From the NCBI GenBank assembly GCA_023653095.1, contig JAMNXP010000002.1, positions 80,910 through 144,909 on the forward strand: DNA of 64,000 bases, read 5' to 3'. Below, piece by piece: positions 12,760 to 40,812 of the stretch. Source of the DNA: Bacteroidia bacterium. GTDB taxonomy: Bacteria > Bacteroidota > Bacteroidia > NS11-12g > UBA955. The notes beneath the pieces were generated by a model. That model was not told the origin of the DNA and did no database searches. It saw nothing but the letters and a program-made list of their open reading frames with translations. The position numbers and the translations under genes are program-made. How positions within the stretch are numbered: position 1 is the stretch's first letter; each line of letters begins with the position of its first letter.

Positions 12760-12767
12760 TAACTTTG
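12760..12767 (+). promoter_or_regulatory. Candidate -7 box TAacTTTG upstream of the giant PKD-repeat gene
   Basis: TAnnTTTG match that overlaps the ORF-track TTG start at 12765. This argues the real start is ATG 12771 or 12777 (MKKLQK.. signal peptide). Confidence 0.25.
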
Positions 12768-12776
12768 TTAATGTCA

Positions 12777-27785: not shown

Positions 27786-29708
27786 ATGAATGCTTTGAGA
27801 CTTTTATTGACCACTTCAATTGCGGTTTTTTGTCAGACCATGTTTGCACAGGCTCTCTATGTATCATCGGGCGAAACCGTATTTATATCCTCCGGAACCA
27901 CAGTAACATCAACAAGTGGAGTGACAACCATTGTATCAGGGGGTACGTTAAATGTGGCGGGTGAATATCAAAGCGCAGGTAACTTTATCAATTCTGGAAC
28001 GCTTACAGCTACGTCTGGGACATTGACTTTTACTGGCTCCGGACAAACTGTTTCGGCCAACAATGCAACAGTGAAAAATGTGAATATTGGTTCATCGGCA
28101 GCTGTTACACTTAGCAGCGCACTTAATATTCAAGGGGGTACTAATTATGGTACTTTGACTGTTGCCAATGGCGGTACGCTCAATTCGGCCGGATATTTGA
28201 CTTTGAAGTCAGACGCAAATGGAAATGCAGTTGTTGCAGCTGGGTCCTCTTCTGGTTCATACATCTCAAACGCCGTGATCGTGGAGAGATACATCCCGGC
28301 CCGCAGAGCGTTCAGAATTCTATCCCCAAGCGTTACAACTTCAACTTCTATTTATGCAAACTGGCAAGAAGGTGGTTCTAGCAGCCCTTCTTTAGGTACT
28401 CATATCACCGGAAACAGCGGTTCATCTAACGGATTTGACAATACCGCGACCAACAATGCCTCTCTTTTTAGTTTTAACAACGCTTCTGGTTCAAATACCG
28501 ATGGAAGTTGGTCGGCAGTTACAAATACCAACACCAATACGTTGACTGCGGGTTCGCCTTTAAGAGTTTTAATAAGAGGTGATCGTACCATCGATCTATC
28601 TACAGCGGCCCCTACGCCTACAATAACTACCTTAAGAGCAACCGGTACTCTCGGACAAGGAAATGTCACAGTAAGTAGTCTGAGCCAAATTTCAAACGGA
28701 TTCAGTCTGGTTGGAAATCCATTTCCGACCCCTGTAAACATGAAGTCTGTTTTGGATAACGCTACCAATGTTTCTAATGCTTATTTTTATGTTTGGGATC
28801 CTCAAGTGAATACTCGCGGTGGTTATGTTACTTTTGATTTGAGCACCAGTACAAGCAATGTGGGGACTTCTAATCAAACGGTATTTCTTCAGCCTGGACA
28901 ATCCGCTTTTGTAAAAACGTCTTCTAATGGTTCAGCATCTTTGACTTTTGCTGAAAGTTATAAATCAACTGCTAGTATAAATCAAGGTGTGTTCTTAACC
29001 ATTCCTCCTCAATCGGTTTTGAAAATAGAATTATCGCAGCGTGATAGTTTTAAAGTGGGTGCAAATATGTGCGACGCGTTGATTTTGAAGTTTGATCCTT
29101 CAATGTCAAATACCTTAGAAGTTCAGGATGCGATCAAACCCATCAACCAAGATGAAAATTTGTCGGTTTTTGTTGGCGAAAAATTTTGTTCCATCGAATC
29201 AAGAAACATTCCTCAGAATGAAGAAATCATTGACCTAAGAATTTCTCAATTGAGGCATTTGAACTATACCTTGAAGGCTGAATTTACCGGGGATTTGGGA
29301 ATGGATGCTTATTTGTTGGATAGATTCACTGGCAAAACGCATCTTTTAAACAAAGTAGGCGAAACTATTGTCGAATTTGATGTTGATGCAACAACCGAGA
29401 GTAAAGCCAATCAGCGTTTTGCATTAATCTTTGATGCTGGAAACAACAGTAGAGTAAAGAGCATTCAACAGTCATTTAAAGCCTATCCAAATCCGTTAAG
29501 TGCATCGAAGATTACCTTAGATGTATTTGCGGCCCAAATTCAAAGCGTTGAAATCTATGACATTTCAGGCAGATACATGGGAAATTTGAAACCTGCCCTG
29601 AGCGAAAATGAGTTTGAACTTCACGAACAATTGCCTAACGGTGCGTATTTGCTAAGAGCAAACACCAACGAAGGTCAGTTTTCTACCACTATTTCTGTTG
29701 CTCGATAG
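27786..29708 (+). CDS. Secreted protein with Gly/Thr/Ser-rich beta-helix-like repeats and T9SS type-A C-terminal sorting domain
   Basis: Signal peptide. The N-terminal 160 aa are repeats of SGTTVTSTSGVTT..GGTLNVAG..SGTLTATSGTLTFTGSGQTV. The C-terminal ~80 aa (KAYPNPLSASKITLDVF...VEIYDISGRYMG...LPNGAYLLRANTNEGQFSTTISVAR) match a T9SS CTD. Confidence 0.75.
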   Translation: MNALRLLLTTSIAVFCQTMFAQALYVSSGETVFISSGTTVTSTSGVTTIVSGGTLNVAGEYQSAGNFINSGTLTATSGTLTFTGSGQTVSANNATVKNVNIGSSAAVTLSSALNIQGGTNYGTLTVANGGTLNSAGYLTLKSDANGNAVVAAGSSSGSYISNAVIVERYIPARRAFRILSPSVTTSTSIYANWQEGGSSSPSLGTHITGNSGSSNGFDNTATNNASLFSFNNASGSNTDGSWSAVTNTNTNTLTAGSPLRVLIRGDRTIDLSTAAPTPTITTLRATGTLGQGNVTVSSLSQISNGFSLVGNPFPTPVNMKSVLDNATNVSNAYFYVWDPQVNTRGGYVTFDLSTSTSNVGTSNQTVFLQPGQSAFVKTSSNGSASLTFAESYKSTASINQGVFLTIPPQSVLKIELSQRDSFKVGANMCDALILKFDPSMSNTLEVQDAIKPINQDENLSVFVGEKFCSIESRNIPQNEEIIDLRISQLRHLNYTLKAEFTGDLGMDAYLLDRFTGKTHLLNKVGETIVEFDVDATTESKANQRFALIFDAGNNSRVKSIQQSFKAYPNPLSASKITLDVFAAQIQSVEIYDISGRYMGNLKPALSENEFELHEQLPNGAYLLRANTNEGQFSTTISVAR

Positions 29709-29753: not shown

Positions 29754-32333
29754 ATGAGAAAAGTAGTATTCTTAATGGTTGCCACTGCAGCCATGATTCC
29801 ATCTACATGGGCTCAATTCAAGAGCAAGAAAGAAGAAAAAACAGCCACTCCCCAAGCACAAGATCAACCTGCAAAAGGGAAAAAAACCGAGACTATAGAT
29901 AATAAAGTCAAGGGTTGTGACACCATAGCAGGCTTATTTACCTTATATCGTGATACTACTTCAGGAGAGTTATTTATGCAAATTTCTCCTGAGCAATTGA
30001 ATAAGGAATTTATCCATTTTACATACACTGAAAACGGAGTGCTTGAAGCGGGACATCACCGCGGCGCCTATCGTGGAAGCCGTATTTTTAAAATAGTCAG
30101 AAAGTATGAGTCAATAGAGTTTATTCAACAGAATACATCCTTCTATTTTGACCCTAAGAACAACGTGTCAAAAAGTGCCAATGCCAATATTTCGGAGGCA
30201 ATTTTGGCTCATGAAAAGATTGTGGCTAAAGACAAAAGTGGGAATTTATTGATTGCGGCAGATGAATTGTTTTTATCTGAACAACTGCATCAAGTGGTTG
30301 AAGGCGGCAGACCTGGAAGAGGATTTGAATTGGGTAGATTGGCAAAAGGGAAAACACAATACGAGAAAATCAAAAACTACCCCGCTAATTTAGATATTGT
30401 GGTTAAGTATGTTTACGATAACGCATCTCCCAAAGGTGGTGCCACCGAAGCTGTTACTGACCCAAGAAGCGTGTCCATTTTACTTCAACATAGCTTCATG
30501 GAGGTTCCGAACAATGATTTTAAGCCTCGATTTGATGATTACAGAATTGGCTATTTCTCCGAGAACGTTAATGATATGACTTCTCAAGGATTTACCAATT
30601 ACAGAGATTTGATTCACCGTTGGGACTTGAAAAAGAAAGATCCAAATGCTATAAAAAGTGAACCTGTAAAACCCATAGTTTGGTGGATTGAAAATACCAC
30701 CCCCAAAGAACTTCGTCCCATCATTAAGCATGCAGCTTTGCAATGGAATAAAGCTTTTGAACCCCTTGGATTCATCAATGCCGTTCAAGTTTTTGAACAA
30801 CCTGACGATGCAGATTGGGATGCCGGCGATGTGAGATACAATGTTTTGCGTTGGACGTCTTCACCCAATCCTCCCTTTGGTGGTTATGGTCCATCATTCG
30901 TTAACCCTCGAACAGGAGAAATTTTGGGTGCTGACATCATGTTGGAATACATCTTTTTGACCAATAGAGTTCGTACTCAACAGATTTATGGCATTGAAGG
31001 TGCAGAGATGGAGAATGAAAATCATTCAACCCATACTGGATGTGATGCAGGACTTTATTTGCATTATCAACTTCAAGCATCCCAAGGAATCATGAATCTT
31101 CAAGAGGCTGACACCATTGAGATGACCCGACTGTTGGAAGAGTCAATTCACTATTTGATTTTGCACGAAATGGGGCATACCATGGGATTGATGCACAACA
31201 TGAAAGCATCGCAAGTGAGAACGGTGGAAGAATTGAACAATCCTGAGATCACTTACAAACAAGGATTGATTGGTTCGGTGATGGATTATCCAGCAATCAA
31301 TATGCCGTCTTACGGGGTGAAGAATAAGGTGCAATATTGTCAAGTAGAGCCAGGGCCTTATGATTTGTGGGCCATTGATTATGGATATAGTCTTCCGTTA
31401 GAAAATGAGGAAGATGAGCAGGCTCGTTTAAGAAATATCTTGTCTAAAAGCATTCAGCCAGACCTTACTTTTGGTAATGATGCCGATGATATGCGTGCCC
31501 CTGGAAAAGGTCTTGATCCTCGTGTGATGATCAATGACTTGAGTGGTGAATCTGTGAATTTTAGTGCGGAGAAAATGGATTTGATTCGTTCTTTGATGCC
31601 TAAATTATTGGTGAAGTACGGAAACGGACAGCATAGCTATCAACCCATGGTATCGGTGATGAATTCTCTGATGTCTGGTTATGGTACTCATGCGGGAATC
31701 ATATCGAGATACATTGGAGGTGTTAAGGTGGAGCGCTATACTCCTGGACAAGCTCAAGGGAAATCCCCATACACGGCATATTCGTTGGCTGAACAAAAAG
31801 CGGCGATGGAGGCATTGAATAAGTACATTTTTGCTCCCAATGCTTTTGAAATATCGGGCGAAATTGCTCAGCATTTGCAGCAGCAAAGACGAGGTTTCAA
31901 CTTCTTTGCATCTACAGAGGAGCCAAAAATTCACAAACAAATTGAAGGCATTCAAAACTCGGTAATGGCCCATTTGTTGAGTCCGTCGGTTTTGAATAGA
32001 ATGACCGACGCCAAATATTTAGGAAATGCCTATACGGTTTCCGATATGCTCAAAGATTTGACCAATGCAGTTTTTGAGGCAGATATCAAATCATTACCTA
32101 ATACGCATAGACGTCAACTTCAAACCAATTATGTGAAGGCCCTGGTACAGTACATGGATAAGCCCAGTAACGGATTGGATGCAGTTGCTAGTGCATCTAT
32201 TTATAGAGAACTTAAGCGCATTGAATCGATGATGAAATCTGGTGGCCCACTTTCAAATCCCTGGGAAAACCAAGAGGTGAATAACCACAGAAATTACATC
32301 ATGTTTCTGATTGAGCGCGGATTAGACGATTGA
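29754..32333 (+). CDS. Secreted zinc-dependent metalloprotease (HEMGH; Bacteroidota DUF4953/DUF5117-type)
   Basis: Signal peptide. HExxH motif in LILHEMGHTMGLMHNM. 859 aa. Confidence 0.75.
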   Translation: MRKVVFLMVATAAMIPSTWAQFKSKKEEKTATPQAQDQPAKGKKTETIDNKVKGCDTIAGLFTLYRDTTSGELFMQISPEQLNKEFIHFTYTENGVLEAGHHRGAYRGSRIFKIVRKYESIEFIQQNTSFYFDPKNNVSKSANANISEAILAHEKIVAKDKSGNLLIAADELFLSEQLHQVVEGGRPGRGFELGRLAKGKTQYEKIKNYPANLDIVVKYVYDNASPKGGATEAVTDPRSVSILLQHSFMEVPNNDFKPRFDDYRIGYFSENVNDMTSQGFTNYRDLIHRWDLKKKDPNAIKSEPVKPIVWWIENTTPKELRPIIKHAALQWNKAFEPLGFINAVQVFEQPDDADWDAGDVRYNVLRWTSSPNPPFGGYGPSFVNPRTGEILGADIMLEYIFLTNRVRTQQIYGIEGAEMENENHSTHTGCDAGLYLHYQLQASQGIMNLQEADTIEMTRLLEESIHYLILHEMGHTMGLMHNMKASQVRTVEELNNPEITYKQGLIGSVMDYPAINMPSYGVKNKVQYCQVEPGPYDLWAIDYGYSLPLENEEDEQARLRNILSKSIQPDLTFGNDADDMRAPGKGLDPRVMINDLSGESVNFSAEKMDLIRSLMPKLLVKYGNGQHSYQPMVSVMNSLMSGYGTHAGIISRYIGGVKVERYTPGQAQGKSPYTAYSLAEQKAAMEALNKYIFAPNAFEISGEIAQHLQQQRRGFNFFASTEEPKIHKQIEGIQNSVMAHLLSPSVLNRMTDAKYLGNAYTVSDMLKDLTNAVFEADIKSLPNTHRRQLQTNYVKALVQYMDKPSNGLDAVASASIYRELKRIESMMKSGGPLSNPWENQEVNNHRNYIMFLIERGLDD

Positions 32334-34210
32334 GAATCATGCGGAACTTATTCTTGCTGGTACTCTTATACAGTACCTGCTTCAAGGTACAAGCGCAAGC
32401 CCATTCAGATACTTTGATCTATGTTCAATTAGGGGAAGTAAGTTTACATTCCAATAGATTGAGTCAGAATTTGACTCAAACTGGATTGAATGTGGAGGTG
32501 ATTGAGATGGCCTCTTTCCGGAAGAAATATCCGGTTCAAAGTTTGAATGAGGTTTTGACTTATGTCAGCGGTGTTGATTTGAGGCAAAGGGGTCCAATAG
32601 GGGTTCAGGCTGATTTAGGCATTCGCGGATCGGGTTCAGATCAGATGTTGGTTCTGGTGAATGGAATCAGAATGAGTGATCCTCAAACAGGACATCATCA
32701 ATTGAATCTCCCCATTCCTTTAGATTTAATTGAGAGAATTGAAGTCATTAAAGGCCCTATGGCCCGTAGATATGGATTGAATGCTTTGAGTGGGGTGATC
32801 AATGTGGTATTAAAAAGTGAAGGCGCTTCGCAGAATCAAGATGGAATCCATGCGAGCGTTGAAACTTGGGCAGGAGCTCCTGCTAAAAGTGATTCAGTGC
32901 GTTATTCGGCGTGGGGATATAGAGCCGGAATAAGTATCCAAAAGAAGCAACACCACCTTTGGTATTCTACTGAAGGGATGCTTGGCAATGGGTATAGACC
33001 CAACACGGAGTTTGAAAATTTTCGAAATTTCTTGGGTTATTCGTGGGTCTCAAAAAAGTACTATTTCAATGCCATGGCCTCATTGGTGAACAATGATTTT
33101 GGGGCCAGTTATTTTTATGCGGCTCCCAATGATCATTCTGCCAAGGAATTTGTGAGTACCCGATTGCTCTCTGCAAAATACGGGTATAAAATATCACAGA
33201 AGCTCAGCATTAATGCGGTTTTGAGCAATAGAAATAACTTTGATCACTACATTTATTTCAAGCCCAAGCCAGAACTTTACCAGAATAAGCATACCAATGT
33301 GGTGAACATGATGGAGTTGAATTTGGTGGGTAAATCTCAATGGTTGGATTACAGTTTTGGCCTGGAAAATCGTCAAGAGCAAATTGAAAGCAATAATTTA
33401 GGGAATCATACACGCGAGTTTACCGGTAGTTTCGCGGAGTTTTCACCTAGATTAGGATCTAAATTGCACGCGACTGCTGGGATATATGCAATGTGGGGCA
33501 GCGGTGTAACCACCAATAAATTTGACCTGTTTCCAGGGTTGGATGTTCGTTATTCGGTTAATAAAAACTTTGATTTCTGGGGATGTTGGGGCGTGGGTCA
33601 GCGACTGCCTTCGTTTACAGACTTGTATTATACTGACAGAGGCAATAGAGGCAATCCCTTATTAAAATCAGAAAGTGCAGAATCCATTGAATTGGGTATC
33701 AAGGGTAATGCTGTGTCTGGAGTTCGTTATCAAGCGAGTATTTTTAGGAAGGATATTTACAGAATGATTGATTGGTTTAGAGATAGCATCAGCCAACCAT
33801 GGTTTCCGGAAAATTTAGGGAATCAAATGGTCAATGGGGTAGAGGCGAATGTAAATTGGAGTGTCAATCAAAAAATCAATGTAAACACCAACGCCACTTA
33901 CATGGATGGAAGCATGAATTCAGGAATAAATCAGTATTCTAAACTAGCACTGAATTTTGTTCGTTTGCAAGTAGTTTCAAATCTGAATGTTCAGTGGACA
34001 AAAAAGATCAATACAAGTTTGGTTTTCAGGCATATAGATAGAATGAACAATACATCTTATCAACTGTTGGATTTTAGATTTAACTATCAGTTGAAGAAAA
34101 TGAATTTTAATGTGAATGCCACAAACTTAGGTAATACTCAATACCGAGAAATACAGTCGGTACCATTGATGCCCCGTTGGGTTTATTTAGGTTTTAAGTT
34201 TAATATTTAA
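32330..34210 (+). CDS. TonB-dependent outer-membrane receptor
   Basis: Signal peptide, plug-domain signature (IERIEVIKGPMARRYGLNALSGVINVVLK), beta-barrel C-terminus. ATGA start/stop overlap with the upstream metalloprotease. Confidence 0.8.
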   Translation: MRIMRNLFLLVLLYSTCFKVQAQAHSDTLIYVQLGEVSLHSNRLSQNLTQTGLNVEVIEMASFRKKYPVQSLNEVLTYVSGVDLRQRGPIGVQADLGIRGSGSDQMLVLVNGIRMSDPQTGHHQLNLPIPLDLIERIEVIKGPMARRYGLNALSGVINVVLKSEGASQNQDGIHASVETWAGAPAKSDSVRYSAWGYRAGISIQKKQHHLWYSTEGMLGNGYRPNTEFENFRNFLGYSWVSKKYYFNAMASLVNNDFGASYFYAAPNDHSAKEFVSTRLLSAKYGYKISQKLSINAVLSNRNNFDHYIYFKPKPELYQNKHTNVVNMMELNLVGKSQWLDYSFGLENRQEQIESNNLGNHTREFTGSFAEFSPRLGSKLHATAGIYAMWGSGVTTNKFDLFPGLDVRYSVNKNFDFWGCWGVGQRLPSFTDLYYTDRGNRGNPLLKSESAESIELGIKGNAVSGVRYQASIFRKDIYRMIDWFRDSISQPWFPENLGNQMVNGVEANVNWSVNQKINVNTNATYMDGSMNSGINQYSKLALNFVRLQVVSNLNVQWTKKINTSLVFRHIDRMNNTSYQLLDFRFNYQLKKMNFNVNATNLGNTQYREIQSVPLMPRWVYLGFKFNI

Positions 34211-34217
34211 ATTATAA

Positions 34218-34646
34218 ATGAGACGAAATTATGTGGCCATTGCATTATTGATGATGGCGATTGCAGTAGCTTTGGGCGCATTTGGTGCTCACGGATTGGA
34301 GGGTAAATTGAATGACCATGATATGCATACATGGGAAAAAGCGACCACCTATTGGGTATATGTGGCATTATCTATTTTGGGTATTGTTGGATTTGTGCAG
34401 AACAAGGAAGATGATAAAAAAAATGCACAAAAGATACTTGGGGTGAATGGCCGTATTTTTAGTGGATCTTTGATATGGCTTCTAATGGGGGCAATTATTT
34501 TTTCAGGAACCTTATGGTTCGTTGCTACCTCGAATTTAACGTGGCCAAACTTGAGAAAGTTAGGTATGATTACTCCCATAGGTGGAGTATTCATGATTGT
34601 GGGTTATTGTTGCTTAGGATTCAGAATCTGGAAGATGAATCGATAG
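34218..34646 (+). CDS. DUF423-family small membrane protein
   Basis: N-terminal ALGAFGAHGL motif and four hydrophobic helices. 142 aa. Confidence 0.65.
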   Translation: MRRNYVAIALLMMAIAVALGAFGAHGLEGKLNDHDMHTWEKATTYWVYVALSILGIVGFVQNKEDDKKNAQKILGVNGRIFSGSLIWLLMGAIIFSGTLWFVATSNLTWPNLRKLGMITPIGGVFMIVGYCCLGFRIWKMNR

Positions 34647-34763
34647 AAATCAGTACGGAGTGTGTTTTTATTTTTTTCTATTTTATTAAATTATCAAATA
34701 ATTAAGATTATGGAAATAGCATTTTAGTTAGTGAATGAAAGTTACAAATTTGATAAATACTTG

Positions 34764-34771
34764 TATATTTG
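34764..34771 (+). promoter_or_regulatory. Candidate -7 box TAtaTTTG driving the five-gene GldLM-like operon
   Basis: TAnnTTTG match 23 nt upstream of ATG 34795. It lies inside the longer ORF-track ORF (start 34735), which supports the internal Met as the true start. Confidence 0.3.
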
Positions 34772-34794
34772 CTTTAAATTTTAACAAAAAATCT

Positions 34795-35274
34795 ATGAGA
34801 ATATTTGCTCTAATCGTTTTAATAACCATGCCTTTTGTTTCTCATGGGCAGTCAGATAAATCTGGAGATTTGCAAACGGCTGTTCGTCAATTAGAAGCAA
34901 GAAATAATGTATTGAATAAAAGAATTAGTGAACTTGAAGATGCTAACTACAAATTGAAGTCAGAGATTGAGTCGACCAAAGCGGATGTTCAAGCTGAAAT
35001 TCGCAGATCTCAAGAGCTTCAAGCTCAGAACGAAAGAGCTATGAATTTAGCATTAGATGGATTTACCAAAAAATTCGAAGATCAAAATAAAGTAGTTCAA
35101 GGAGTTCAAGATGAGTTGGGTCGCAAGATTGATCAACAATTAATTATCATGATCGTTGGCATACTTGTTGTTGTTATCATTTTCTTGGTACTCAATAACG
35201 CTGCAACAAAGAAAGCGTTGAAACAAAATGTAGCCAATTGGAATAATTTCCAAGAACACCTATTAAAAAAATAA
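34795..35274 (+). CDS. Coiled-coil protein with N-terminal signal peptide and C-terminal TM anchor (first gene of operon)
   Basis: MRIFALIVLITMPFVSHGQ signal, a heptad-like region Q/E/K-rich (LEARNNVLNKRISELEDANYKLKSEIESTKADVQAEIRRSQELQAQ), and a C-terminal helix LIIMIVGILVVVIIFLVL. A 6-nt gap separates it from the next gene. Confidence 0.5.
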   Translation: MRIFALIVLITMPFVSHGQSDKSGDLQTAVRQLEARNNVLNKRISELEDANYKLKSEIESTKADVQAEIRRSQELQAQNERAMNLALDGFTKKFEDQNKVVQGVQDELGRKIDQQLIIMIVGILVVVIIFLVLNNAATKKALKQNVANWNNFQEHLLKK

Positions 35275-35280
35275 AACAAT

Positions 35281-35778
35281 ATGAGTAATACACAAAAAGC
35301 GCAAAAGGGTAAACTTGATGCAGTAACCTTTGTCTATGGAGTCGGTGCAGCCATCGTATTGGTCGGAGCGATGTTCAAATTCTTGGGTTGGAATTTTGCC
35401 AATGAAATGTTCATCATTGGTTTGACCGTTGAAGCAATCGTATTTTTGATATCTGCGTTCGAAAGAAAAGTTACAGAAAAAGAATATCAATGGGAACAAG
35501 TATTTCCACAGTTGGATAATGAAGGTAATAGCACTGGTGTAGATACAACGGGTTATCAATCAGCTATGCAACAATTCAGCCAAACATTGGCTCAATTGAA
35601 CGAAGGTTTAAAGGAGATGACAGCTGCTGTTAACGATATCAAAACTGAAATGCGCACAAATGCTGACCAATCAAACCAAATGAAACAGTCAATGACTGAA
35701 TTCAACAGTTTGATGACCAACTACAATGATAATCTTAAGAAAATCAACGATCAGTACAATCAGCTTTTGAATAAGTAA
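35281..35778 (+). CDS. GldL/PorL-like motor protein homologue (short, 165 aa)
   Basis: Two N-terminal TM helices with YGVGAAIVLVGAMFKFLGW and IIGLTVEAIVFLISAFE. These resemble the GldL N-terminus from memory (YGxGAAVVIxGALFK ... TEAxIFxLSAFEP), including a TM2 glutamate (E51, codon 35431-35433) at the position of the essential GldL Glu49. The cytoplasmic coiled-coil tail fits too. Confidence 0.55.
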   Translation: MSNTQKAQKGKLDAVTFVYGVGAAIVLVGAMFKFLGWNFANEMFIIGLTVEAIVFLISAFERKVTEKEYQWEQVFPQLDNEGNSTGVDTTGYQSAMQQFSQTLAQLNEGLKEMTAAVNDIKTEMRTNADQSNQMKQSMTEFNSLMTNYNDNLKKINDQYNQLLNK

Positions 35779-35786
35779 TATCCTTC

Positions 35787-37196
35787 ATGGGAAAACTGAC
35801 CGTCAGAATCTCGAAAGCAAAGAACATCTCATTCATGAGATTGTCTTTATTTTACTTGATTTTCATTGTACAAATCTTCTTTACCTCTCCTGGAATGTAT
35901 GTTTTGCAGTATCCAGATGTTCAGGAGTCGCAGAAAATGGTGAACGAACGTTTACTATCGGAGTTGAATGTATTCAAACCAAAAGTACCTGAGCATGTAG
36001 AACTCAAAAAAGCGACATTGCAGTGTCTTACTTCTTTGGAAGATGTGAAGAAAGCTTATTACGCATATGAAAAAGAAGCAAGTATTTCTGGTGACCGACT
36101 CAGAGAAAGTAAGTTTGCTGAACAGCAAATACGCAACGGTAAATGGGGTCCAATCATTGAAAGAACTCTAAATGACTTTATCAAGAATTATAATAAGGTT
36201 GGTAATAAGAATCTAAAGGAAGAGTTTATTTCATTGGAAGACAGTAAAGGCATCGAATTTGATGGATTGTACTACTTCTTTAAGGGTACACCCAACGGTG
36301 TTATACCTTCGGTGATTGAACATTTTAAAACCGTAATGCTTTATCATTCCATTTTGGCAATGAAAAAGAAAGAATCTGAACTTCCTAAGTTTGAGATTTT
36401 AACCCTAGACGAGACTGATTTCATCCAAAAGTTCAAGAAGAATTTGATTTTAGGCGAACCCCTCGATTTGATTATTCGTCCCAAAGAAATTGGAAAAAGA
36501 CCAATAGTAAAGATCAATGGTTCTCCAATTAAAGTAGATTCATTAAGTTCTTCTGATTTTAAGATGTACTTTTTACCGCCTGCGGTAGGTGATTACGCAT
36601 TGGAAGTAATGTCGAACGACAAAAGATTGTTTGCATCGTTCAAGGTGGTGCCACCTTCGTTTAGATTCATCAACTCTGCAAGTTCGGTTTCTGGTTTCGT
36701 GGGAGACCCACTATATGTTACATTAGATAGCGGATACGTCCCCAAAGGAAAATACATCACTTTTTCTTCAAAAGTGGCAAAGGTTGAGCGTAAAGGTTGG
36801 AAATTGACCATTACACCTGAGAGAGAAGGGATTTTTGTTGTGCAAATGTTTGATAATGGCAAGTTTATGGATCAATCAGAATTTGTTGCAACTGTTAAAC
36901 CTGAGGAAGAAGTTGTTTTGATGGATATCAGTGGTAATTCCGTTGACTTGAGTCAAGCCAATAAATTAGAAGCGAAAAATACGTTTTGGCAAGTGGTAGA
37001 TTTCGATATGAGTGTAACACATCCTAATGGATTTTCAAAAAGAACACACAGCTCTACGCGTTTCTTACGGAATGACTTGAGAGAACTAGAATCATCAGCT
37101 CCAGCGGGCAGTGTTTTGATTTTCGACAATATCCGCTTGGTAGGTCAGACGGATGGTGTGGTAACAAAAGGTAGGCCGGTAATAATTATTAAGTAA
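35787..37196 (+). CDS. GldM/PorM-like bitopic protein, paralogue 1 (469 aa)
   Basis: N-terminus MGKLTVRISKAKNISFMRLSLFYLIFIV: a single TM helix opening with Arg18 (codon 35838-35840), then a helical K/E-rich region followed by beta-rich regions like the GldM D1 and D2-D4 domains. It shares the MGxxxVRxxKAK N-terminal motif with the next gene. Confidence 0.5.
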   Translation: MGKLTVRISKAKNISFMRLSLFYLIFIVQIFFTSPGMYVLQYPDVQESQKMVNERLLSELNVFKPKVPEHVELKKATLQCLTSLEDVKKAYYAYEKEASISGDRLRESKFAEQQIRNGKWGPIIERTLNDFIKNYNKVGNKNLKEEFISLEDSKGIEFDGLYYFFKGTPNGVIPSVIEHFKTVMLYHSILAMKKKESELPKFEILTLDETDFIQKFKKNLILGEPLDLIIRPKEIGKRPIVKINGSPIKVDSLSSSDFKMYFLPPAVGDYALEVMSNDKRLFASFKVVPPSFRFINSASSVSGFVGDPLYVTLDSGYVPKGKYITFSSKVAKVERKGWKLTITPEREGIFVVQMFDNGKFMDQSEFVATVKPEEEVVLMDISGNSVDLSQANKLEAKNTFWQVVDFDMSVTHPNGFSKRTHSSTRFLRNDLRELESSAPAGSVLIFDNIRLVGQTDGVVTKGRPVIIIK

Positions 37197-37197
37197 C

Positions 37198-38568
37198 ATG
37201 GGAAATTTTGTTAGAGTAAAAAAAGCCAAGGTTCTGCGTTTTCAATTGATAAGCGTTATGTACTTGTTATTTATCTCGCTATCCATATTGCAAATCCCCA
37301 TTGATTGGTTGAGAACAAACATCAATATGGCTCAGTATATAAATAATTCCACGTCTGTTGAGATGGATAATAAGCAGATTATCGCTGTTTATGACGAGAT
37401 AGAGACTATTGAGAAGGAGTTTTACAAAGAAGTGGGTTACGATTTAGATAGGAAAATCTACAAAGATCCAGACAGTTATAGCGGAACAGATATGTATTTT
37501 ATCCGTTGGAAGAAAGGTTATAAGTTGTTTAACAAAATTGTAGAACTGAAAAAGTATCATTTATCCCTTCCAGATAACAATCCCAAAAAGGCTGAGTTCA
37601 AAAAGTTATTTGCTGACGATTTGAAAAATGGGTTAGAAGCAGAAAAGGCAACGCTTTGGGTAGAGTGGAAGTTTAAGCACGTACCTGCTGGTGTAGTGGT
37701 TACTTGGTTGGCAGATTTGAAATTGAGAATGAAACTGTTAAACGGTGGAATAATTCTTAAGGAAGAGCAAAATGCTGATTATTTGGTGCTTATGGCTTAC
37801 AACATGGAAGCGGTTCGTCCAGGAGACACGGTTAGAATTGTGGTTTTCAATCATGAGGAAATGCAGGTAAGTGCCACTGAAAACGACAAAGTGTTTGATT
37901 TAAAAGATTGGCATGGAGATACCTTGTTTTTTGTACCAAAATATGTGGGTATCTACAATTTGAGTTTCAAAAAGAATGGGGTTGAGGAGAACTTAAAAGT
38001 GACTTCGATTGCCAAGACTTTTGAACGCGAGAAAGATAACAAATACAACATTTTTTACGAAGGAAAACCAGCGGAACTGCATTATGTGAATTTGTTAAAT
38101 CCAGCAGGTATTAGCTGTGATTGTGATCCAAATATTGCCATGAATAGAAGCAGTAACAAGGTAACATTTACGCCGCAAAAGTCTGGTTGGTGCAGTTTTG
38201 TGATCAACAATAAAGACGGTAGAGCGCTTTTGAGGGACTCAATTTATGTTCAAAAGATACCTGAGCCCTTTCTTTATGCCGAGGGAAGTAGCGGAAGTGT
38301 AATGTCAAGAACGCGTCTAAAAGCTGATGGCTTTGTGTATATTTATGGAACACATCCTGATTTACAAAAGTTTAAATATTCGTTATCAAACATTAAGTAT
38401 CGTTTGGTAGGTGCTACGAATGAGGTAATGAGTTCTTCGGGTAGTAAACTTTCTTTGACAGCAGATCAAGTTGACAAAGTAAAGTATATTGTGGTTCAAG
38501 GTGCCGATATCAATACAGGTTCTAAGGGAATGGTTTTTGAGAAGCCATTAGTAATTCAAATTAAGTAA
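37198..38568 (+). CDS. GldM/PorM-like bitopic protein, paralogue 2 (456 aa)
   Basis: N-terminus MGNFVRVKKAKVLRFQLISVMYLLFISLSIL matches the GldM N-terminal pattern R-QKMINLMYLVF. Arg14 (codon 37237-37239) sits 7 residues before MYL, exactly as GldM Arg9 sits before M16-Y17-L18. Helical region then beta-rich periplasmic region. A 1-nt gap separates it from paralogue 1. Confidence 0.55.
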   Translation: MGNFVRVKKAKVLRFQLISVMYLLFISLSILQIPIDWLRTNINMAQYINNSTSVEMDNKQIIAVYDEIETIEKEFYKEVGYDLDRKIYKDPDSYSGTDMYFIRWKKGYKLFNKIVELKKYHLSLPDNNPKKAEFKKLFADDLKNGLEAEKATLWVEWKFKHVPAGVVVTWLADLKLRMKLLNGGIILKEEQNADYLVLMAYNMEAVRPGDTVRIVVFNHEEMQVSATENDKVFDLKDWHGDTLFFVPKYVGIYNLSFKKNGVEENLKVTSIAKTFEREKDNKYNIFYEGKPAELHYVNLLNPAGISCDCDPNIAMNRSSNKVTFTPQKSGWCSFVINNKDGRALLRDSIYVQKIPEPFLYAEGSSGSVMSRTRLKADGFVYIYGTHPDLQKFKYSLSNIKYRLVGATNEVMSSSGSKLSLTADQVDKVKYIVVQGADINTGSKGMVFEKPLVIQIK

Positions 38569-38574
38569 TCAACA

Positions 38575-40782
38575 ATGAGAAATATATTTCATACCTTTTC
38601 AACTATTTTAGCCTTGGCATCATTTTCGATGCTCCAAGCGCAGTCTAGCGAAGTGGTGATATCTGGCACACGGGTGGTAGATTCTTCGGAAACTTTTAGC
38701 GTAAAGCCCGGTCAAACATTGATTTTTGAGGAAGGCGCGCGTTTGTTGGTATTTGGTGGCCTAAATATCAAGGGTACACAAGATAATCCAACAAAAATCA
38801 TCTCACGCAACGCTGAAACCCCTGGTCTGGGTATTGTCATTGCAGATAATAAATCTAGAAATCAGGATGTCATTGTTGAGAATGCCGAAGTATCAGGATT
38901 GGTTCAGGCCCTCCGATTTGATCCTTTTTGGTACAGGAAGTCGGTGCGTATTAATAACGTGAAGTTCTCAGGTATTGATTCTAGGGAGCCTTTGATTTAT
39001 GCATCTTCGCCTCTGTTAGATTTGAGAGATAATAAGAGTATTGATTTTCAAATCACCAATTCACGATTCTTTAATAATACGGGTAATGTAATTCTTGAAA
39101 AAGTGGGTTCATTGGGAATCAAATATACTCTTGATAAATTGACTTTCAACGACAATACCTTGAAAGGAGATAATGCATCTATGGGAATTCTTCATTTAGA
39201 TTTTGCTCGCACGGTAATTGCTGATGAAGTTTTATTGGGTGATTTGACTTTTGTGAACAACAAGGCAGGAGATAAGAACATAGGTCTTTCGGTTAGCGGC
39301 GGATCTGGTGTTCCTGTTAATATTCCAACAGGAAAAGTATTTTCAAATGCCTCTGGTACTCAAGTCATTTTTGATAACCGTCGCGATCCACGTTTGCCTA
39401 AAATTGGTGCAAATGAGACATCCAGCCTGAAGGAAAAAGGAGGCGATGAAATCTTCATCACTGGAGCAACTCACAAATTTGGCCGTTTAGCCCTAGAAGT
39501 TGTTGGTCAACCTAAGATTGTTGAAATTAAAGATTCTTTTGGTAGAGCGGTTTTCATCAATCAAAACCTTGTAGGTGATAGCTTAATTGCCACTTATTTA
39601 GAAGGTAATCCGGTTACTTTAACCTTACAAAACGGATTGAAATACAATGTGCCTCAGTTAACTGCGGCGCAACTACCTCCACCTTTATATAGAAGGGTAG
39701 ATACTACGTTAATTAGTCCCGAGTGGCCTGATACCACTTTGAAAGCAAAAGTGGGATTTATGATTATTATTCCGATGTTCCATAATCCCAAAGAAATCGA
39801 GAAATTGAAAACTTGGGAATTCGGTTTTTGGGGCGGTGGATCTATTTATGGGGGCGGTGATATTGCGTACAAGGGCTGGCCAATACCTTCCACAATAGAA
39901 ATTAGCGGTGGTGGTTATGCACAGTATAATCTAACCAATGCGTTTTCATTAAAGTCAAATATTTACCGATCAACGGTTTCGGTGCACAATCTTTGGGCAC
40001 AAGGTCTCCTATCTGGTGGAAAGGTCCCATTGGTTACCGATACGGCTGGTAATAAAATTCAACCATATCCTAATTCTTGGCCAATGATGTTTGTCACTCC
40101 AATGACGGTTCTGGACGTAGAAGGACTATGGCATATAGGTAAGTACAGTTTTAAGCCCGGTCAAAAAGGAAAGTTTGTGAATTCAATGGGAATTAGCTTG
40201 GGAGTATTCACATACACGCCATACAGAATAGCATACCGTAATCAAAAAAATGATGAGTCTGACGCCGCCTATAAAGCGCGTTTGTGGAGTGAGGAGAGAG
40301 TGAATTTGAGGGAGCTGGGTTTGGAAGGACAAAACTTCCTCGAGAACAGTAAACCATATGGTAAATTCTCTATGAATGTTGGACTTTCTTGGCAATTGGC
40401 ATACATCAGAAAACGTTGGGCCTTCAAAGGTGAAGCAAAAGCGGTTTACACCTTTACCGATTATTTAGATGATTATGGTCCTGGTTTATGGTATGGCGGT
40501 GATTATGATGCTTGGTTGCAAAGCGTAAAAGACAATCCAACCTATGCCCAAGATCCTACATTCTTCGCAAATGGAGATCTGAATCAGCCATTGGCAAAAT
40601 TATACAAAACCTCAGGCGGTTCAACCACTCACACTGTGATTTCCCCTAACGCCGCTCGTTCTACCAATGGTGTCAACGACTGGTACTATCAAGCTCATAT
40701 GGGACTTTCATACAGACTACAGAAGAAGGATGAGAAACCCAAGATTGAGACTCTAAAAGAGAAAGAATCAAAGAAGAACTAA
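38575..40782 (+). CDS. Secreted hypothetical protein with N-terminal parallel beta-helix-like repeats (last gene of operon)
   Basis: Signal peptide MRNIFHTFSTILALASFSMLQAQ. Repetitive Asn/Gly-rich beta-solenoid-like segments (NNTGNVILEKVG.., NDNTLKGDNASMG.., FVNNKAGDKNIGLS..). The C-terminal half is rich in aromatics and Gly. A 6-nt gap separates it from the upstream gene. Confidence 0.45.
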   Translation: MRNIFHTFSTILALASFSMLQAQSSEVVISGTRVVDSSETFSVKPGQTLIFEEGARLLVFGGLNIKGTQDNPTKIISRNAETPGLGIVIADNKSRNQDVIVENAEVSGLVQALRFDPFWYRKSVRINNVKFSGIDSREPLIYASSPLLDLRDNKSIDFQITNSRFFNNTGNVILEKVGSLGIKYTLDKLTFNDNTLKGDNASMGILHLDFARTVIADEVLLGDLTFVNNKAGDKNIGLSVSGGSGVPVNIPTGKVFSNASGTQVIFDNRRDPRLPKIGANETSSLKEKGGDEIFITGATHKFGRLALEVVGQPKIVEIKDSFGRAVFINQNLVGDSLIATYLEGNPVTLTLQNGLKYNVPQLTAAQLPPPLYRRVDTTLISPEWPDTTLKAKVGFMIIIPMFHNPKEIEKLKTWEFGFWGGGSIYGGGDIAYKGWPIPSTIEISGGGYAQYNLTNAFSLKSNIYRSTVSVHNLWAQGLLSGGKVPLVTDTAGNKIQPYPNSWPMMFVTPMTVLDVEGLWHIGKYSFKPGQKGKFVNSMGISLGVFTYTPYRIAYRNQKNDESDAAYKARLWSEERVNLRELGLEGQNFLENSKPYGKFSMNVGLSWQLAYIRKRWAFKGEAKAVYTFTDYLDDYGPGLWYGGDYDAWLQSVKDNPTYAQDPTFFANGDLNQPLAKLYKTSGGSTTHTVISPNAARSTNGVNDWYYQAHMGLSYRLQKKDEKPKIETLKEKESKKN

Positions 40783-40789
40783 ATACGGA

Positions 40790-40812
40790 AGGCCCCAAAT
40801 GGGGCCTTTTTT
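40790..40812 (+). terminator. Rho-independent terminator ending the five-gene operon
   Basis: AGGCCCC aaat GGGGCCT perfect 7-bp GC stem followed by TTTTTT. Confidence 0.85.

Follow-up and report, generated by a model that had tools for sequence, protein, structure and literature searches.

A short GldL-type protein with a conserved motor glutamate lies in a five-gene module of uncultured Bacteroidota

The 165-aa protein encoded at 35281-35778 is probably a functional, proton-coupled GldL-type stator subunit of a self-contained five-gene module, and not a component of a canonical gldKLMN operon. The module apparently constitutes an undescribed envelope-spanning motor, the axle of which is probably a heterodimer of two GldM/PorM paralogues, termed M1 and M2 here. 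A literature search for GldL-like and GldM-like paralogues (gldL2/gldM2) returned no description of this module. All positions refer to the window, i.e. the whole stretch of 64,000 nucleotides that was analysed.

Results

The short gldL gene is part of a conserved five-gene operon

The genes and flanking signals of the module are as follows.

34764..34771, + strand: putative promoter -7 element TATATTTG, 24 nt upstream of the ATG at 34795
34795..35274, + strand: upstream gene, 159 aa from the ATG at 34795 (the longest ORF starts at 34735)
35281..35778, + strand: short GldL-type protein, 165 aa, ATG to TAA (NCBI MCL9980419.1, 'gliding motility protein GldL')
35787..37196, + strand: M1, 469-aa GldM/PorM paralogue with one N-terminal TM helix (NCBI hypothetical protein NBV77_03145)
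37198..38568, + strand: M2, 456-aa GldM/PorM paralogue (NCBI hypothetical protein NBV77_03150)
38575..40782, + strand: 735-aa outer-membrane protein with a signal peptide and no cysteine (confident structure model)
40787..40810, + strand: terminator-like hairpin with a 10-bp stem (6 GC pairs) and a T-run after it, 5 nt past the last stop codon

The genes thus run in the order bitopic coiled-coil protein, short GldL, M1, M2 and 735-aa outer-membrane protein, with intergenic gaps of 6, 8, 1 and 6 nt. The Bacteroidota -7 promoter consensus is TAnnTTTG, which the candidate element upstream of the first gene fits. A scan for sigma-70 promoters, a model unsuited to Bacteroidota, gave no enrichment (22 found versus 20.4 expected in shuffled sequences). 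At the other end, the hairpin and its T-run mark the end of the operon.

A scan of 185,579 species genomes found the short GldL family in 163 of them. Among the best 80 of these 163 relatives, all of them MAGs of uncultured hosts, the synteny of the five genes was kept in ∼70 loci, while no other gene family around the module was common to more than 14. Module hosts are uncultured, mostly freshwater Bacteroidota; two modules (L005 and L020) occur together in one MAG, and the module also resides on the complete chromosomes OZ257133.1, CP051243.1 and NZ_OZ245832.1. Public annotation names GldL alone and lists the four partners as 'hypothetical'. The larger finding, the conserved five-gene module, lay outside the coordinates of the initial annotation.

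The upstream gene was found in 66 loci. Its product starts with a signal-like N-terminal segment, continues as a ∼100-aa coiled coil and, beyond a TM helix of strong hydrophobicity at residues 115-133, ends in a short tail; this bitopic topology is repeated in nearly all orthologues. Pfam returned only coiled-coil noise for this protein; its dN/dS is 0.05. More widely, matches of the upstream protein and of the GldL tail in Pfam and NCBIfam (WXG100, YukE, MCP, SecF, bZIP and others) were below-cutoff coiled-coil noise and were rejected.

The 165-aa protein is a GldL homologue with a single cytoplasmic helix

The initial annotation had described a GldL-like protein with two TM helices and a glutamate, Glu51 (codon gaa, 35431-35433), inside the second. 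The ORF, from ATG to TAA on the + strand, encodes exactly the sequence quoted there, and both residue and codon read as described. The features of the protein are listed below.

35320..35385, + strand: TM1, residues 14-35 (hydropathy and AlphaFold), which holds Tyr19 and Lys33
35335-35337, + strand: Tyr19, the equivalent of GldL Y13 (alignment to GldL)
35377-35379, + strand: Lys33, the equivalent of GldL K27 (alignment to GldL)
35386-35388, + strand: Gly36, in place of GldL His30 (alignment)
35404..35460, + strand: TM2, residues 42-60 (hydropathy and AlphaFold)
35431..35433, + strand: Glu51, codon GAA, the homologue of GldL Glu49 (alignment)
35461..35463, + strand: Glu61 codon, the equivalent of GldL Glu59
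35548..35772, + strand: single long cytoplasmic helix, residues 90-164, ending '...NLKKINDQYNQLL' (AlphaFold and alignment)

Hydropathy placed TM1 at residues 14-32 and TM2 at 42-60. In agreement with this, the AlphaFold model, used for secondary structure only because its pLDDT of 66.9 is too weak for a fold search, contains helices at 14-35 and 42-60, a disordered stretch at 61-89 and one long helix at 90-164. With TM2 spanning residues 42-60, Glu51 lies in the middle of this helix. A Lys-rich N-terminus and an 'ERK' after TM2 flank the hairpin, and the predicted topology, i.e. an N-terminal two-TM hairpin with both ends cytoplasmic, is that of GldL/PorL.

Profile searches bore out the proposed GldL relationship. 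The protein scored above cutoff with Pfam PF22827 GldL_N (E = 1.7e-25, residues 18-80; 89.4 bits, cutoff 24) and with NCBIfam TIGR03513 PorL/GldL (90.4 bits, cutoff 68.3), the latter match spanning just profile positions 5-68 of 247. In a phmmer search of the PDB, PorL 7sat_C was the best match (3.6e-16), followed by the GldL chains 7sau_C, 7saz_C, 6ys8_G and 7sax_C with E-values to 5.3e-10; the profile of the short GldL family matched GldL/PorL at 2.9e-25.

The protein is also 50 aa shorter than its F. johnsoniae counterpart, as the annotation had it, the solved chain being 215 aa long. GldL/PorL cytoplasmic domains comprise ∼150 aa or more with repeated 'LNxxY' helices; the short GldL falls outside this description. 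Its tail has one motif of this type, 'INDQY', which aligned with either repeat of the solved GldLs (7sax second-domain i-E 0.002). The C-terminal fragment of a canonical GldL, taken from the contrast locus L083, gave no tblastn match in any module locus.

Glu51 is invariant and the gene is under strong constraint

In F. johnsoniae, the motor requires Glu49, as the annotation had stated: the substitutions E49A/Q/D abolish secretion and gliding (PMC9127263, PMC8986121, bioRxiv 10.1101/2020.05.11.089193). Alignment with 6ys8_G, in which residue numbering was fixed by the published Y13 and K27, equated Y19, K33, E51 and E61 of the short GldL with Y13, K27, E49 and E59 of GldL, and a MAFFT alignment placed E51 in the same Glu column as all five solved GldL/PorL chains. 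The homology claimed for the two glutamates therefore holds, and Glu51 was invariant in 113 of 113 family members, down to 34% identity. Y19, K33 and G47 are among the other invariant residues, as is Asn156 in the C-terminal helix, where a motif is conserved. Glu61 is Glu in ∼85% of the family; its GldL equivalent, Glu59, is a gliding-specific residue (PMC8986121).

There are limits to this conservation: the cytoplasmic tail is one 'LNxxY' helix short of the canonical two, and His30 is replaced by Gly. At the latter position, 88% of the short GldL family carry Gly, whereas 98% of canonical sequences carry His. In canonical GldL, His30 lies in the periplasmic loop and touches GldM, and H30A slows adhesin movement; with Gly in this loop, the interface between the L and M subunits must therefore differ from that of the canonical motor.

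The short gldL gene evolved at a dN/dS of ∼0.02 at unsaturated dS (0.55-0.82), comparable estimates for the other four module genes being 0.01-0.07, and its product kept a length of 155-210 aa across the family. Since Glu51 is invariant and dN/dS is this low, the short GldL is not degenerate. The view of the initial annotation that the protein is functional is thus well founded, the more so as the equivalents of Y13, K27 and E59 are kept and the M2 protein of the same operon retains the Arg/Tyr pair of GldM (see below).

M1 and M2 are diverged GldM/PorM paralogues, one of which lacks the ion-pairing arginine

The following residues of M1 and M2 were assigned by alignment.

35829-35831, + strand: M1 Ser15, at the site of GldM Arg9 (Arg18 is three residues deeper)
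35853-35855, + strand: M1 Tyr23, the equivalent of GldM Y17
37237-37239, + strand: M2 Arg14, the equivalent of GldM R9, aligned with the PorM Arg
37261-37263, + strand: M2 Tyr22, the equivalent of GldM Y17 (Arg-Tyr spacing of 8, as in GldM)

Neither M1 nor M2 matched a PDB entry in single-sequence phmmer searches, so profiles built from the orthologues in the fetched loci were needed. The M1 profile aligned over its full length with PorM 7cmg_A (E = 7.7e-21, residues 14-456 versus 20-514). The M2 protein scored above cutoff with Pfam GldM_1st (6.7e-8), and its profile matched PorM at 1.3e-13, over D1 and a weak later segment, and GldM 6ys8_A at 3.8e-10. When compared with each other by hhalign, M1 and M2 aligned over their full length with 99.9% probability. 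Both consist of one N-terminal TM helix followed by the periplasmic domains D1-D4, the architecture of GldM/PorM.

The two paralogues differ in their motor residues. In M2, an Arg stands eight residues before the conserved Tyr in 60 of 60 sequences (49/49 anchored and 11 by eye), and the Tyr itself is found in every member except one, which has Phe. M1 keeps the Tyr in 73 of 73 sequences; an Arg at -8 occurs in only six of the 73, all distant variants, the position otherwise being S/N/T/I, and M1 carries Lys/Arg at -5/-6. In the cryo-EM structure, the Arg9 of one GldM pairs with GldL Glu49 while the Tyr17 of the other GldM brackets the pair (bioRxiv 10.1101/2020.05.11.089193).

M1 and M2 always co-occur, 1-3 nt apart. 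Tandem duplication of the GldM gene had two independent origins: in the main clade it is ancient, the partners being undetectable to each other by BLAST, and in Bacteroidales-type loci the tandem partners are 33-44% identical. Variants with a single GldM retain the canonical 'LRQKLINVMYL' motif. A 'CxC...C' pattern in M2 was considered as a mimic of the SprF/PorG twin cysteines and rejected; only some two-thirds of sequences have both Cys307 and Cys332, and these lie within an Ig-like domain, which makes a structural disulfide more likely.

The 735-aa protein joins a periplasmic beta-helix to a PorG-like barrel

According to its structure model, the 735-aa protein contains three folded parts.

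38650-39354, + strand: right-handed beta-helix, residues 26-260, periplasmic
39454-39648, + strand: beta-sandwich (Ig-like domain), residues 294-358
39802-40719, + strand: eight-stranded PorG-like barrel, residues 410-715 (PorG-like by HMM)

A disordered linker is predicted at residues 371-398. Among the residues assigned to the beta-helix domain, Q111, R114, D116, W119, R121, E138, D149, N167, N168, E175, N194, D267 and H300 are invariant. The predicted eight-stranded barrel is a feature of PorG; the 735-aa protein itself scored 29 bits with NCBIfam T9SS_PorG (NF052316), below the curated cutoff of 130, and the same profile recognized 18 of 24 members of its family (E ≤ 0.01; best 6.4e-34). 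DUF6089 matched some of its relatives. PorG carries a C-tail cysteine motif that forms a disulfide with GldK Cys343 or PorK Cys356 and is essential for secretion (PMC12635249). This motif is absent from the 735-aa protein, no conserved Cys was seen in the C-tails of 51 orthologues, and 63 of 79 homologues have no Cys at all after the signal peptide.

The module lies apart from canonical T9SS motor genes

The short gldL gene does not sit in a gldK-gldL-gldM-gldN (porKLMN) operon. Canonical GldK, GldN and PorP/SprF from L083, a locus with a canonical operon in which gldK, gldN and porP are all contiguous, gave no tblastn matches in the window and 82 loci (1.2 Mb), while the canonical GldL N-domain gave one match in every locus. 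Likewise, no gldK, gldN or porP gene was found in the window or within 10 kb across 80 loci whose GldL identity ranged from 99% to 35%. A 14-kb Logan contig, reached via one terminal gene of the window, contained no gld genes. Cargo of the T9SS is nonetheless encoded in the window, in the form of proteins whose sorting domains, of type A and of type B, score above the curated cutoffs. From the local absence of gldK and gldN and the presence of T9SS cargo, we infer that a canonical gldL lies elsewhere in the same genome and that the module is separate from the T9SS. The PorG-like barrel could instead place the module within the T9SS.

Discussion

A model for the module

By homology with GldL5:GldM2, the stoichiometry would be 5:2, with the ten TM helices of five short GldL copies encircling a pair of TM helices of the GldM type. 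The protonatable residue would be Glu51 in TM2, forming and breaking an ion pair with M2 Arg14, the equivalent of GldM Arg9; flanking this pair would be two tyrosines, Tyr19 of GldL and the invariant one in the other axle subunit. We favour an M1:M2 heterodimer as the axle because the pattern of Arg plus Tyr in M2 and Tyr only in M1 fits the separate parts that the two chains of GldM play in the asymmetric structure. In such an axle, M2 would contribute Arg and Tyr, and M1 the Tyr only plus a Lys/Arg one helical turn deeper, which would hard-wire the asymmetry seen by cryo-EM in homodimeric GldM. Two four-domain periplasmic stalks of ∼450 aa may then pass movement to the periplasmic part of the 735-aa protein, its beta-helix and Ig-like domain. 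These domains are predicted to be joined by a flexible linker to the PorG-like eight-stranded outer-membrane barrel, so that a peptide tether would replace the PorK-S-S-PorG disulfide of the T9SS hub.

Taken as a whole, we tentatively picture a T9SS-independent trans-envelope machine, a proposal to which we give somewhat less than an even chance. It would comprise a GldL5 ring and an obligately heterodimeric axle of M1 and M2, in which only one Arg takes part in ion pairing; this axle would push a beta-helix of polysaccharide lyase/epimerase-like fold that is peptide-tethered to a small outer-membrane barrel. Such a 'one-toothed' 5:2 motor would be a minimal evolutionary relative of the T9SS hub, or its forerunner, and would set something in motion at the outer membrane or supply it with energy, perhaps in a glycan-related process, without a GldK/N track.

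Alternative readings

The 50 aa missing relative to F. johnsoniae GldL, a TIGR03513 match limited to the N-terminal quarter of the profile and the lost His30 equivalent could indicate a decaying or non-functional duplicate that kept its Glu by chance or recent descent. This is effectively refuted and hardly credible given a dN/dS of ∼0.02 at dS 0.55-0.82, a Glu51 that is invariant over 113 sequences to 34% identity, a length held at 155-210 aa, synteny with four constrained genes in ∼70 loci, and a C-terminal helix with its own invariant Asn156 and conserved motif. A functional module could still be the organism's only GldL/GldM, i.e. the T9SS/gliding motor of a rearranged genome, with gldK, gldN and sprA elsewhere, a normal GldK/N track to drive and the 735-aa protein as the PorG of this lineage. 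We consider this unlikely. The T9SS is in use, as judged by cargo with sorting domains; the short GldL exceeds the equivalog cutoff of TIGR03513; the M1 profile aligns with PorM through D4, the PorN-contacting part; the barrel is PorG-like; and a canonical gldL was seen nowhere in the 64-kb window or the loci. Against it, gldK, gldN or porP occurred within 10 kb in 0 of 80 loci but were contiguous in the canonical L083, and the 735-aa protein lacks the C-tail cysteine motif, the disulfide link of PorG to GldK/PorK (PMC12635249). Furthermore, the N-domains of the short family form a group apart (identity of 0.40 between this group and canonical GldL versus 0.70 within groups, with zero nearest-neighbour crossovers), the family is restricted to 163 of 185,579 species genomes, and one MAG has two modules.

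Even within a dedicated motor, M1 and M2 might occupy separate rings that differ in output, L5:M1(2) and L5:M2(2), or M1 might be a structural protein outside the motor. Canonical GldM/PorM is homodimeric, main-clade M1 and M2 have diverged beyond BLAST detection, and the Lys/Arg at -5/-6 of M1 might stand in for the Arg at -8. Circumstantial evidence makes this arrangement rather improbable in our view: M1 and M2 are always together at 1-3 nt, the axle gene was duplicated twice independently, and Arg plus Tyr in M2 with Tyr only in M1 fits the asymmetric GldM roles (bioRxiv 10.1101/2020.05.11.089193).

Comparison with known systems

The closest relatives are GldLM and PorLM (F. johnsoniae PDB 6YS8; P. 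gingivalis PorLM 7SAT; 7SAU, 7SAX and 7SAZ). They share with the module the GldL_N hairpin, in which Tyr, Lys and the Glu of TM2 occupy identical alignment columns; a partner whose single TM helix has an Arg-Tyr spacing of eight and leads into a periplasmic stalk, which can be aligned with PorM up to and including D4 in M1 and across D1 plus a portion of a later domain in M2; and adjoining genes in the order L then M. Unlike them, the short GldL has a tail with one 'LNxxY' helix instead of two and Gly for His30; the module has two diverged GldM paralogues with the Arg in one only; and its operon and surroundings contain dedicated outer-membrane and bitopic coiled-coil proteins instead of gldK, gldN and porP. 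PorG is an eight-stranded outer-membrane barrel that is disulfide-linked to the PorK/N hub or the GldJKN track (PMC12635249, PMC12365241). The C-terminal half of the 735-aa protein resembles it in being such a barrel, but lacks the C-tail cysteine and is fused via a flexible linker to a periplasmic portion (beta-helix plus Ig-like domain) of ∼400 aa.

Other 5:2 motors (MotAB, ExbBD and TolQR) and AglRQS follow the same presumed logic, in which ion flow through a 5:2 complex does work at the outer envelope; the module nevertheless has no detectable sequence homology to any of them. MotB and ExbD carry the Asp. The charge layout of the module is inverted relative to these motors, with the acidic residue on the ring subunit and the basic one on the axle, and its axle bears a long periplasmic stalk instead of a peptidoglycan-binding or TonB-contacting domain. 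The gliding motor AglRQS of Myxococcus (one MotA-like and two MotB-like proteins) matches the module in having one ring gene and two paralogous axle genes, which in both systems raises the possibility of a heterodimeric axle (PMC9389320).

Significance

Ion-driven motors fall into very few classes, of which GldLM is one, and there is still debate over how this motor turns its 5:2 asymmetry into work. A two-gene axle with one ion-pairing Arg offers a natural test of whether both charges are needed and whether the roles of the GldM chains are fixed and distinct. Because public annotation labels the short GldL 'gliding motility protein GldL' and its partners hypothetical, surveys that count GldL to predict T9SS or gliding can be misled. 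If a GldLM-type motor is indeed coupled directly to a PorG-like barrel, it would identify the dispensable links of the T9SS energy chain, namely the GldK/N track and the disulfide, and the use of this motor class would reach beyond secretion and gliding.

A short GldL that keeps the TM2 glutamate

The initial annotation had described a 165-aa GldL-like protein whose Glu51 corresponds to Glu49, the TM2 glutamate of GldL. The sequence agrees with both the ORF and the residue:

35281-35778, + strand: short gldL ORF, ATG to TAA, 165 aa, identical to the sequence first described
35431-35433, + strand: GAA codon of Glu51, residue 51 of short GldL

Pfam GldL_N matched residues 18-80 (E = 1.7e-25), and NCBIfam TIGR03513 (PorL/GldL) scored 90.4 bits (cutoff 68.3) but covered only profile positions 5-68 of 247. 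A phmmer search of the PDB retrieved PorL 7sat_C (3.6e-16) and the GldL chains 7sau_C, 7saz_C, 6ys8_G and 7sax_C. Alignment with Flavobacterium johnsoniae GldL (6ys8_G, with the published Y13 and K27 as a check on the chain numbering) paired Y19, K33, E51 and E61 with Y13, K27, E49 and E59, and in a multiple alignment E51 fell in the Glu column of 5/5 solved GldL/PorL chains. As the initial annotation had stated, Glu49 is required: E49A/Q/D abolish secretion. Function is reduced by Y13A and by K27A, adhesins move more slowly with H30A, and with E59A gliding becomes uncoupled from secretion (PMC9127263; PMC8986121; bioRxiv 10.1101/2020.05.11.089193).

Kyte-Doolittle windows gave hydrophobic segments at 14-32 and 42-60. 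An AlphaFold model built with 36 family members, read for secondary structure alone given its confidence of only 66.9, has helices at 14-35 and 42-60 and one long helix at 90-164, with 61-89 disordered. Both place Glu51 in the middle of TM2, and the Lys-rich N-terminus and the 'ERK' following TM2 would fit an N-in/C-in hairpin. Judged from sequence by profile, topology and key residues, short GldL belongs to the GldL superfamily.

Among 120 relatives returned from 5.8 billion proteins (mostly 155-210 aa, identity down to 34%), Glu51 was invariant in 113/113 full-length sequences, as were Y19, G20, G22, A23, K33, G47, F55, S58, F60, F75, P76, L78 and N156. Against orthologues in two related loci (L003 and L004), the Nei-Gojobori dN/dS of short gldL was 0.02 at an unsaturated dS of 0.55-0.82, and 0.01-0.07 for its four module neighbours. 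The invariance of Glu51 and the dN/dS exclude a decaying pseudo-paralogue, in line with the original argument for function. The narrow point about Glu51 is correct, yet unsurprising for an annotated GldL homologue: NCBI already names the protein 'gliding motility protein GldL' (MCL9980419.1).

Short gldL lies in a conserved five-gene module

Short gldL is the second gene of a tight five-gene cluster (intergenic gaps of 6, 8, 1 and 6 nt), preceded by a coiled-coil protein gene and followed by two GldM/PorM-like genes, M1 and M2, and the gene of a 735-aa outer-membrane (OM) protein. The cluster is flanked by a TATATTTG box on its upstream side and by a hairpin downstream:

40787-40810, + strand: strong terminator-like hairpin, 3' of the last module stop

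The upstream protein most likely starts at ATG 34795 (159 aa), because a Logan assembly carries a 159-aa gene call and most orthologues start there. The longest ORF runs from 34735 (179 aa) and its extension, 34735-34794, contains the TATATTTG box; the 179-aa database entries are probably over-extended. From its signal-like N-terminus the protein continues into ~100 aa of coiled coil, then a very hydrophobic helix and finally a short tail; nearly all orthologues share this topology.

Scanning one genome per GTDB species, we found relatives in 163 of 185,579 and examined the best 80 of the 163. These 80 were all MAGs, many from lakes, labelled Flavobacteriales, Cryomorphaceae, Croceimicrobium, Bacteroidia, Bacteroidales or Chitinophagaceae, and ∼70 of their loci shared the order and orientation of the five genes. 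When all ORFs of the loci were clustered against one another, the only widely shared families were GldL (80 loci), M1/M2 (78 loci), the upstream protein (66 loci) and the OM protein (60 loci); no other family occurred in > 14. Some module-bearing MAG records evidently carry wrong organism labels ('uncultured Rhizobium sp.', 'Bifidobacterium sp.', 'Vulcanococcus limneticus', 'Chitinophaga pinensis'). The genes upstream at 29754-34646 encode a DUF5117/DUF4953 zinc-peptidase-like protein (859 aa), a DUF423 membrane protein and a TonB-dependent receptor (626 aa; nearest B12/haem receptor models, far below cutoffs); they are syntenic in close relatives only (≤ 14 loci) and thus lie outside the module.

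One MAG, CANKVM01 ('Flavobacteriales bacterium ZE-13may13-36'), holds two module copies (L005 and L020), whose GldLs are 90% and 63% identical to that of the window; this is either a true second copy or bin contamination. Bacteroidales-labelled MAGs (L074-L077, L080) have a variant with a longer upstream protein (320-405 aa). Three distant loci (L078, L079 and L081; two labelled Chitinophagaceae, one Bacteroidetes) show a three-gene variant, which may be the ancestral form. In it a short GldL of 169-192 aa is followed by just one GldM-like gene of 545-563 aa, which carries the canonical 'LRQKLINVMYLIFIAM' motif, and then by a 688-840-aa protein. The GldM-like gene of L078 has Pfam matches to GldM_1st, GldM_3rd and GldM_4th, and the large protein of that locus matches DUF6089.

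M1 and M2 as paired GldM/PorM paralogues

As single sequences, M1 and M2 matched nothing in the PDB. As a profile, M1 (469 aa) matched full-length PorM 7cmg_A at E = 7.7e-21 (residues 14-456 on 20-514), and M2 (456 aa) matched PorM at 1.3e-13 and GldM 6ys8_A at 3.8e-10; hhalign aligned M1 with M2 over their full length (99.9% probability). The M2 TM helix reads 'LR[FY]xLISxxYL', with Arg at -8 from an invariant Tyr in every M2 sequence. This spacing is the register of GldM Arg9/Tyr17, and the profile alignment sets M2 Arg14 on the PorM Arg. M1 keeps the Tyr (73/73 sequences). Its -8 position is occupied by Ser, Asn, Thr or Ile except in a few distant variants (6/73) that have Arg; Lys/Arg at -5/-6 stands in place of the -8 Arg.

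The published asymmetric structure shows an Arg9-Glu49 pair between one GldM and one GldL, bracketed by Tyr17 of the other GldM and by GldL Tyr13 (bioRxiv 10.1101/2020.05.11.089193). The two GldM roles may be split between two genes, M2 supplying Arg and Tyr and M1 the Tyr; the observed residues are as would be expected under such an assignment. M1 and M2 always co-occur, and the axle gene was duplicated twice independently. The main-clade event is ancient, its partners being mutually undetectable by BLAST. Within the Bacteroidales-type loci (L074-L080) the partners are 33-44% identical and no closer to main-clade M1 or M2, so that the duplication in L074-L077 and L080 was independent and more recent; Arg is present in both copies of L076, L077 and L080 and missing from the first copy of L074 and L075. 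Constant co-occurrence and two independent duplications favour joint use of M1 and M2.

The periplasmic Ig-like domain of M2 carries a 'CxC ... GWC' motif:

38116-38124: M2 Cys307 and Cys309, 'CxC' part
38191-38193: M2 Cys332, 'GWC' part

Cys307 and Cys332 co-occur in ∼40/60 orthologues (Cys309 in 30/60) and probably form a structural disulfide. These cysteines are of note since, in the canonical system, SprF and PorG are joined to GldK through twin-cysteine motifs.

A T9SS motor or a separate machine

Predicted sorting-domain cargo is encoded in the window and on an overlapping contig:

2512-4056: 514-aa T9SS cargo, type A domain TIGR04183, above curated cutoff
12765-20699: 2644-aa T9SS cargo, type B sorting domain TIGR04131, 41.2 bits (cutoff 35)
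27786-29708: 640-aa T9SS cargo, type A domain TIGR04183, above curated cutoff
L082 1017-2561 and 9941-12208: two Por_Secre_tail proteins (Logan contig partly overlapping the window's left end)

The 514-aa Por_Secre_tail protein of L082 is probably the gene at 2512-4056. Because the window encodes such cargo, the organism has, and evidently uses, a T9SS, and the module could be its only GldLM, serving that system. We regard this as improbable; that the cluster is a module separate from the T9SS appears a good deal likelier. For comparison we took a canonical operon (L083; ena:ERZ25039500 contig_27245, 328,594 bp) with porP/sprF, gldK, gldL, gldM and gldN. Its gldL and gldM are each split by frameshifts, the operon being otherwise normal; many ∼100-aa 'GldL_N' database proteins are artefacts. 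Its GldK, GldN and PorP found no tblastn match in the window and 82 loci (1.2 Mb); its GldL N-domain found exactly one per locus, and its GldL C-terminal fragment none in any module locus.

The OM protein also bears on the choice. It has no Pfam match itself, but NCBIfam T9SS_PorG recognizes 18/24 members of its family (best E = 6.4e-34), and DUF6089 recognizes four. Its AlphaFold model (44 homologues, pLDDT 82.4) has a signal peptide, a beta-helix (26-260), a beta-sandwich (294-358), a disordered linker (371-398) and eight long strands (410-715). PorG is defined functionally by a cysteine motif in its C-tail, which forms a disulfide with GldK Cys343 or PorK Cys356 (PMC12635249). The window protein contains no cysteine at all and so lacks that motif, and 63/79 homologues are cysteine-free after the signal peptide. 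The OM protein thus resembles PorG in fold without being a PorG.

Finally, short-family N-domains and 125 canonical ones formed two clean groups (mean identity 0.70 within each, 0.40 between) with no nearest-neighbour crossovers. At residue level the two groups differ chiefly at the His30 position in the periplasmic loop, where 98% of canonical sequences have His and 88% of the short family have Gly; this is one experimentally tested residue that is altered in short GldL. Canonical GldL has two cytoplasmic helices, each ending in '...LNxxY', and PorL possibly three; the short family has a single C-terminal helix ('...NLKKINDQYNQLL'), alignable to either canonical repeat, which accounts for its being 50 aa shorter. 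Short GldL thus lacks both the two-repeat domain and the gldKLMN context of its family. Across 1.84 billion representatives, exhaustive scanning with HMMER gave 953 GldL-superfamily clusters, with ∼150-180 aa forms numerous among the best hits. A separate module is favoured by the lack of GldK, GldN and PorP matches in the window and loci, by the absence of cysteine from the PorG-like protein, by the separate grouping of the short-family sequences, by how rare that family is and by the MAG with two copies.

Annotation and precedent

NCBI lists M1, M2 and the OM protein as 'hypothetical', and in JGI both short GldL and its upstream neighbour appear under widely differing names ('YukE', 'methyl-accepting chemotaxis protein', 'SecF', 'RNase H-like'). 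Full-text literature searches did not find GldL/GldM paralogue clusters described. The nearest conceptual precedent is AglRQS, with one ring gene and two axle genes, and the heterodimer question is common to both (PMC9389320). It is the surrounding module, more than Glu51 itself, that merits attention.
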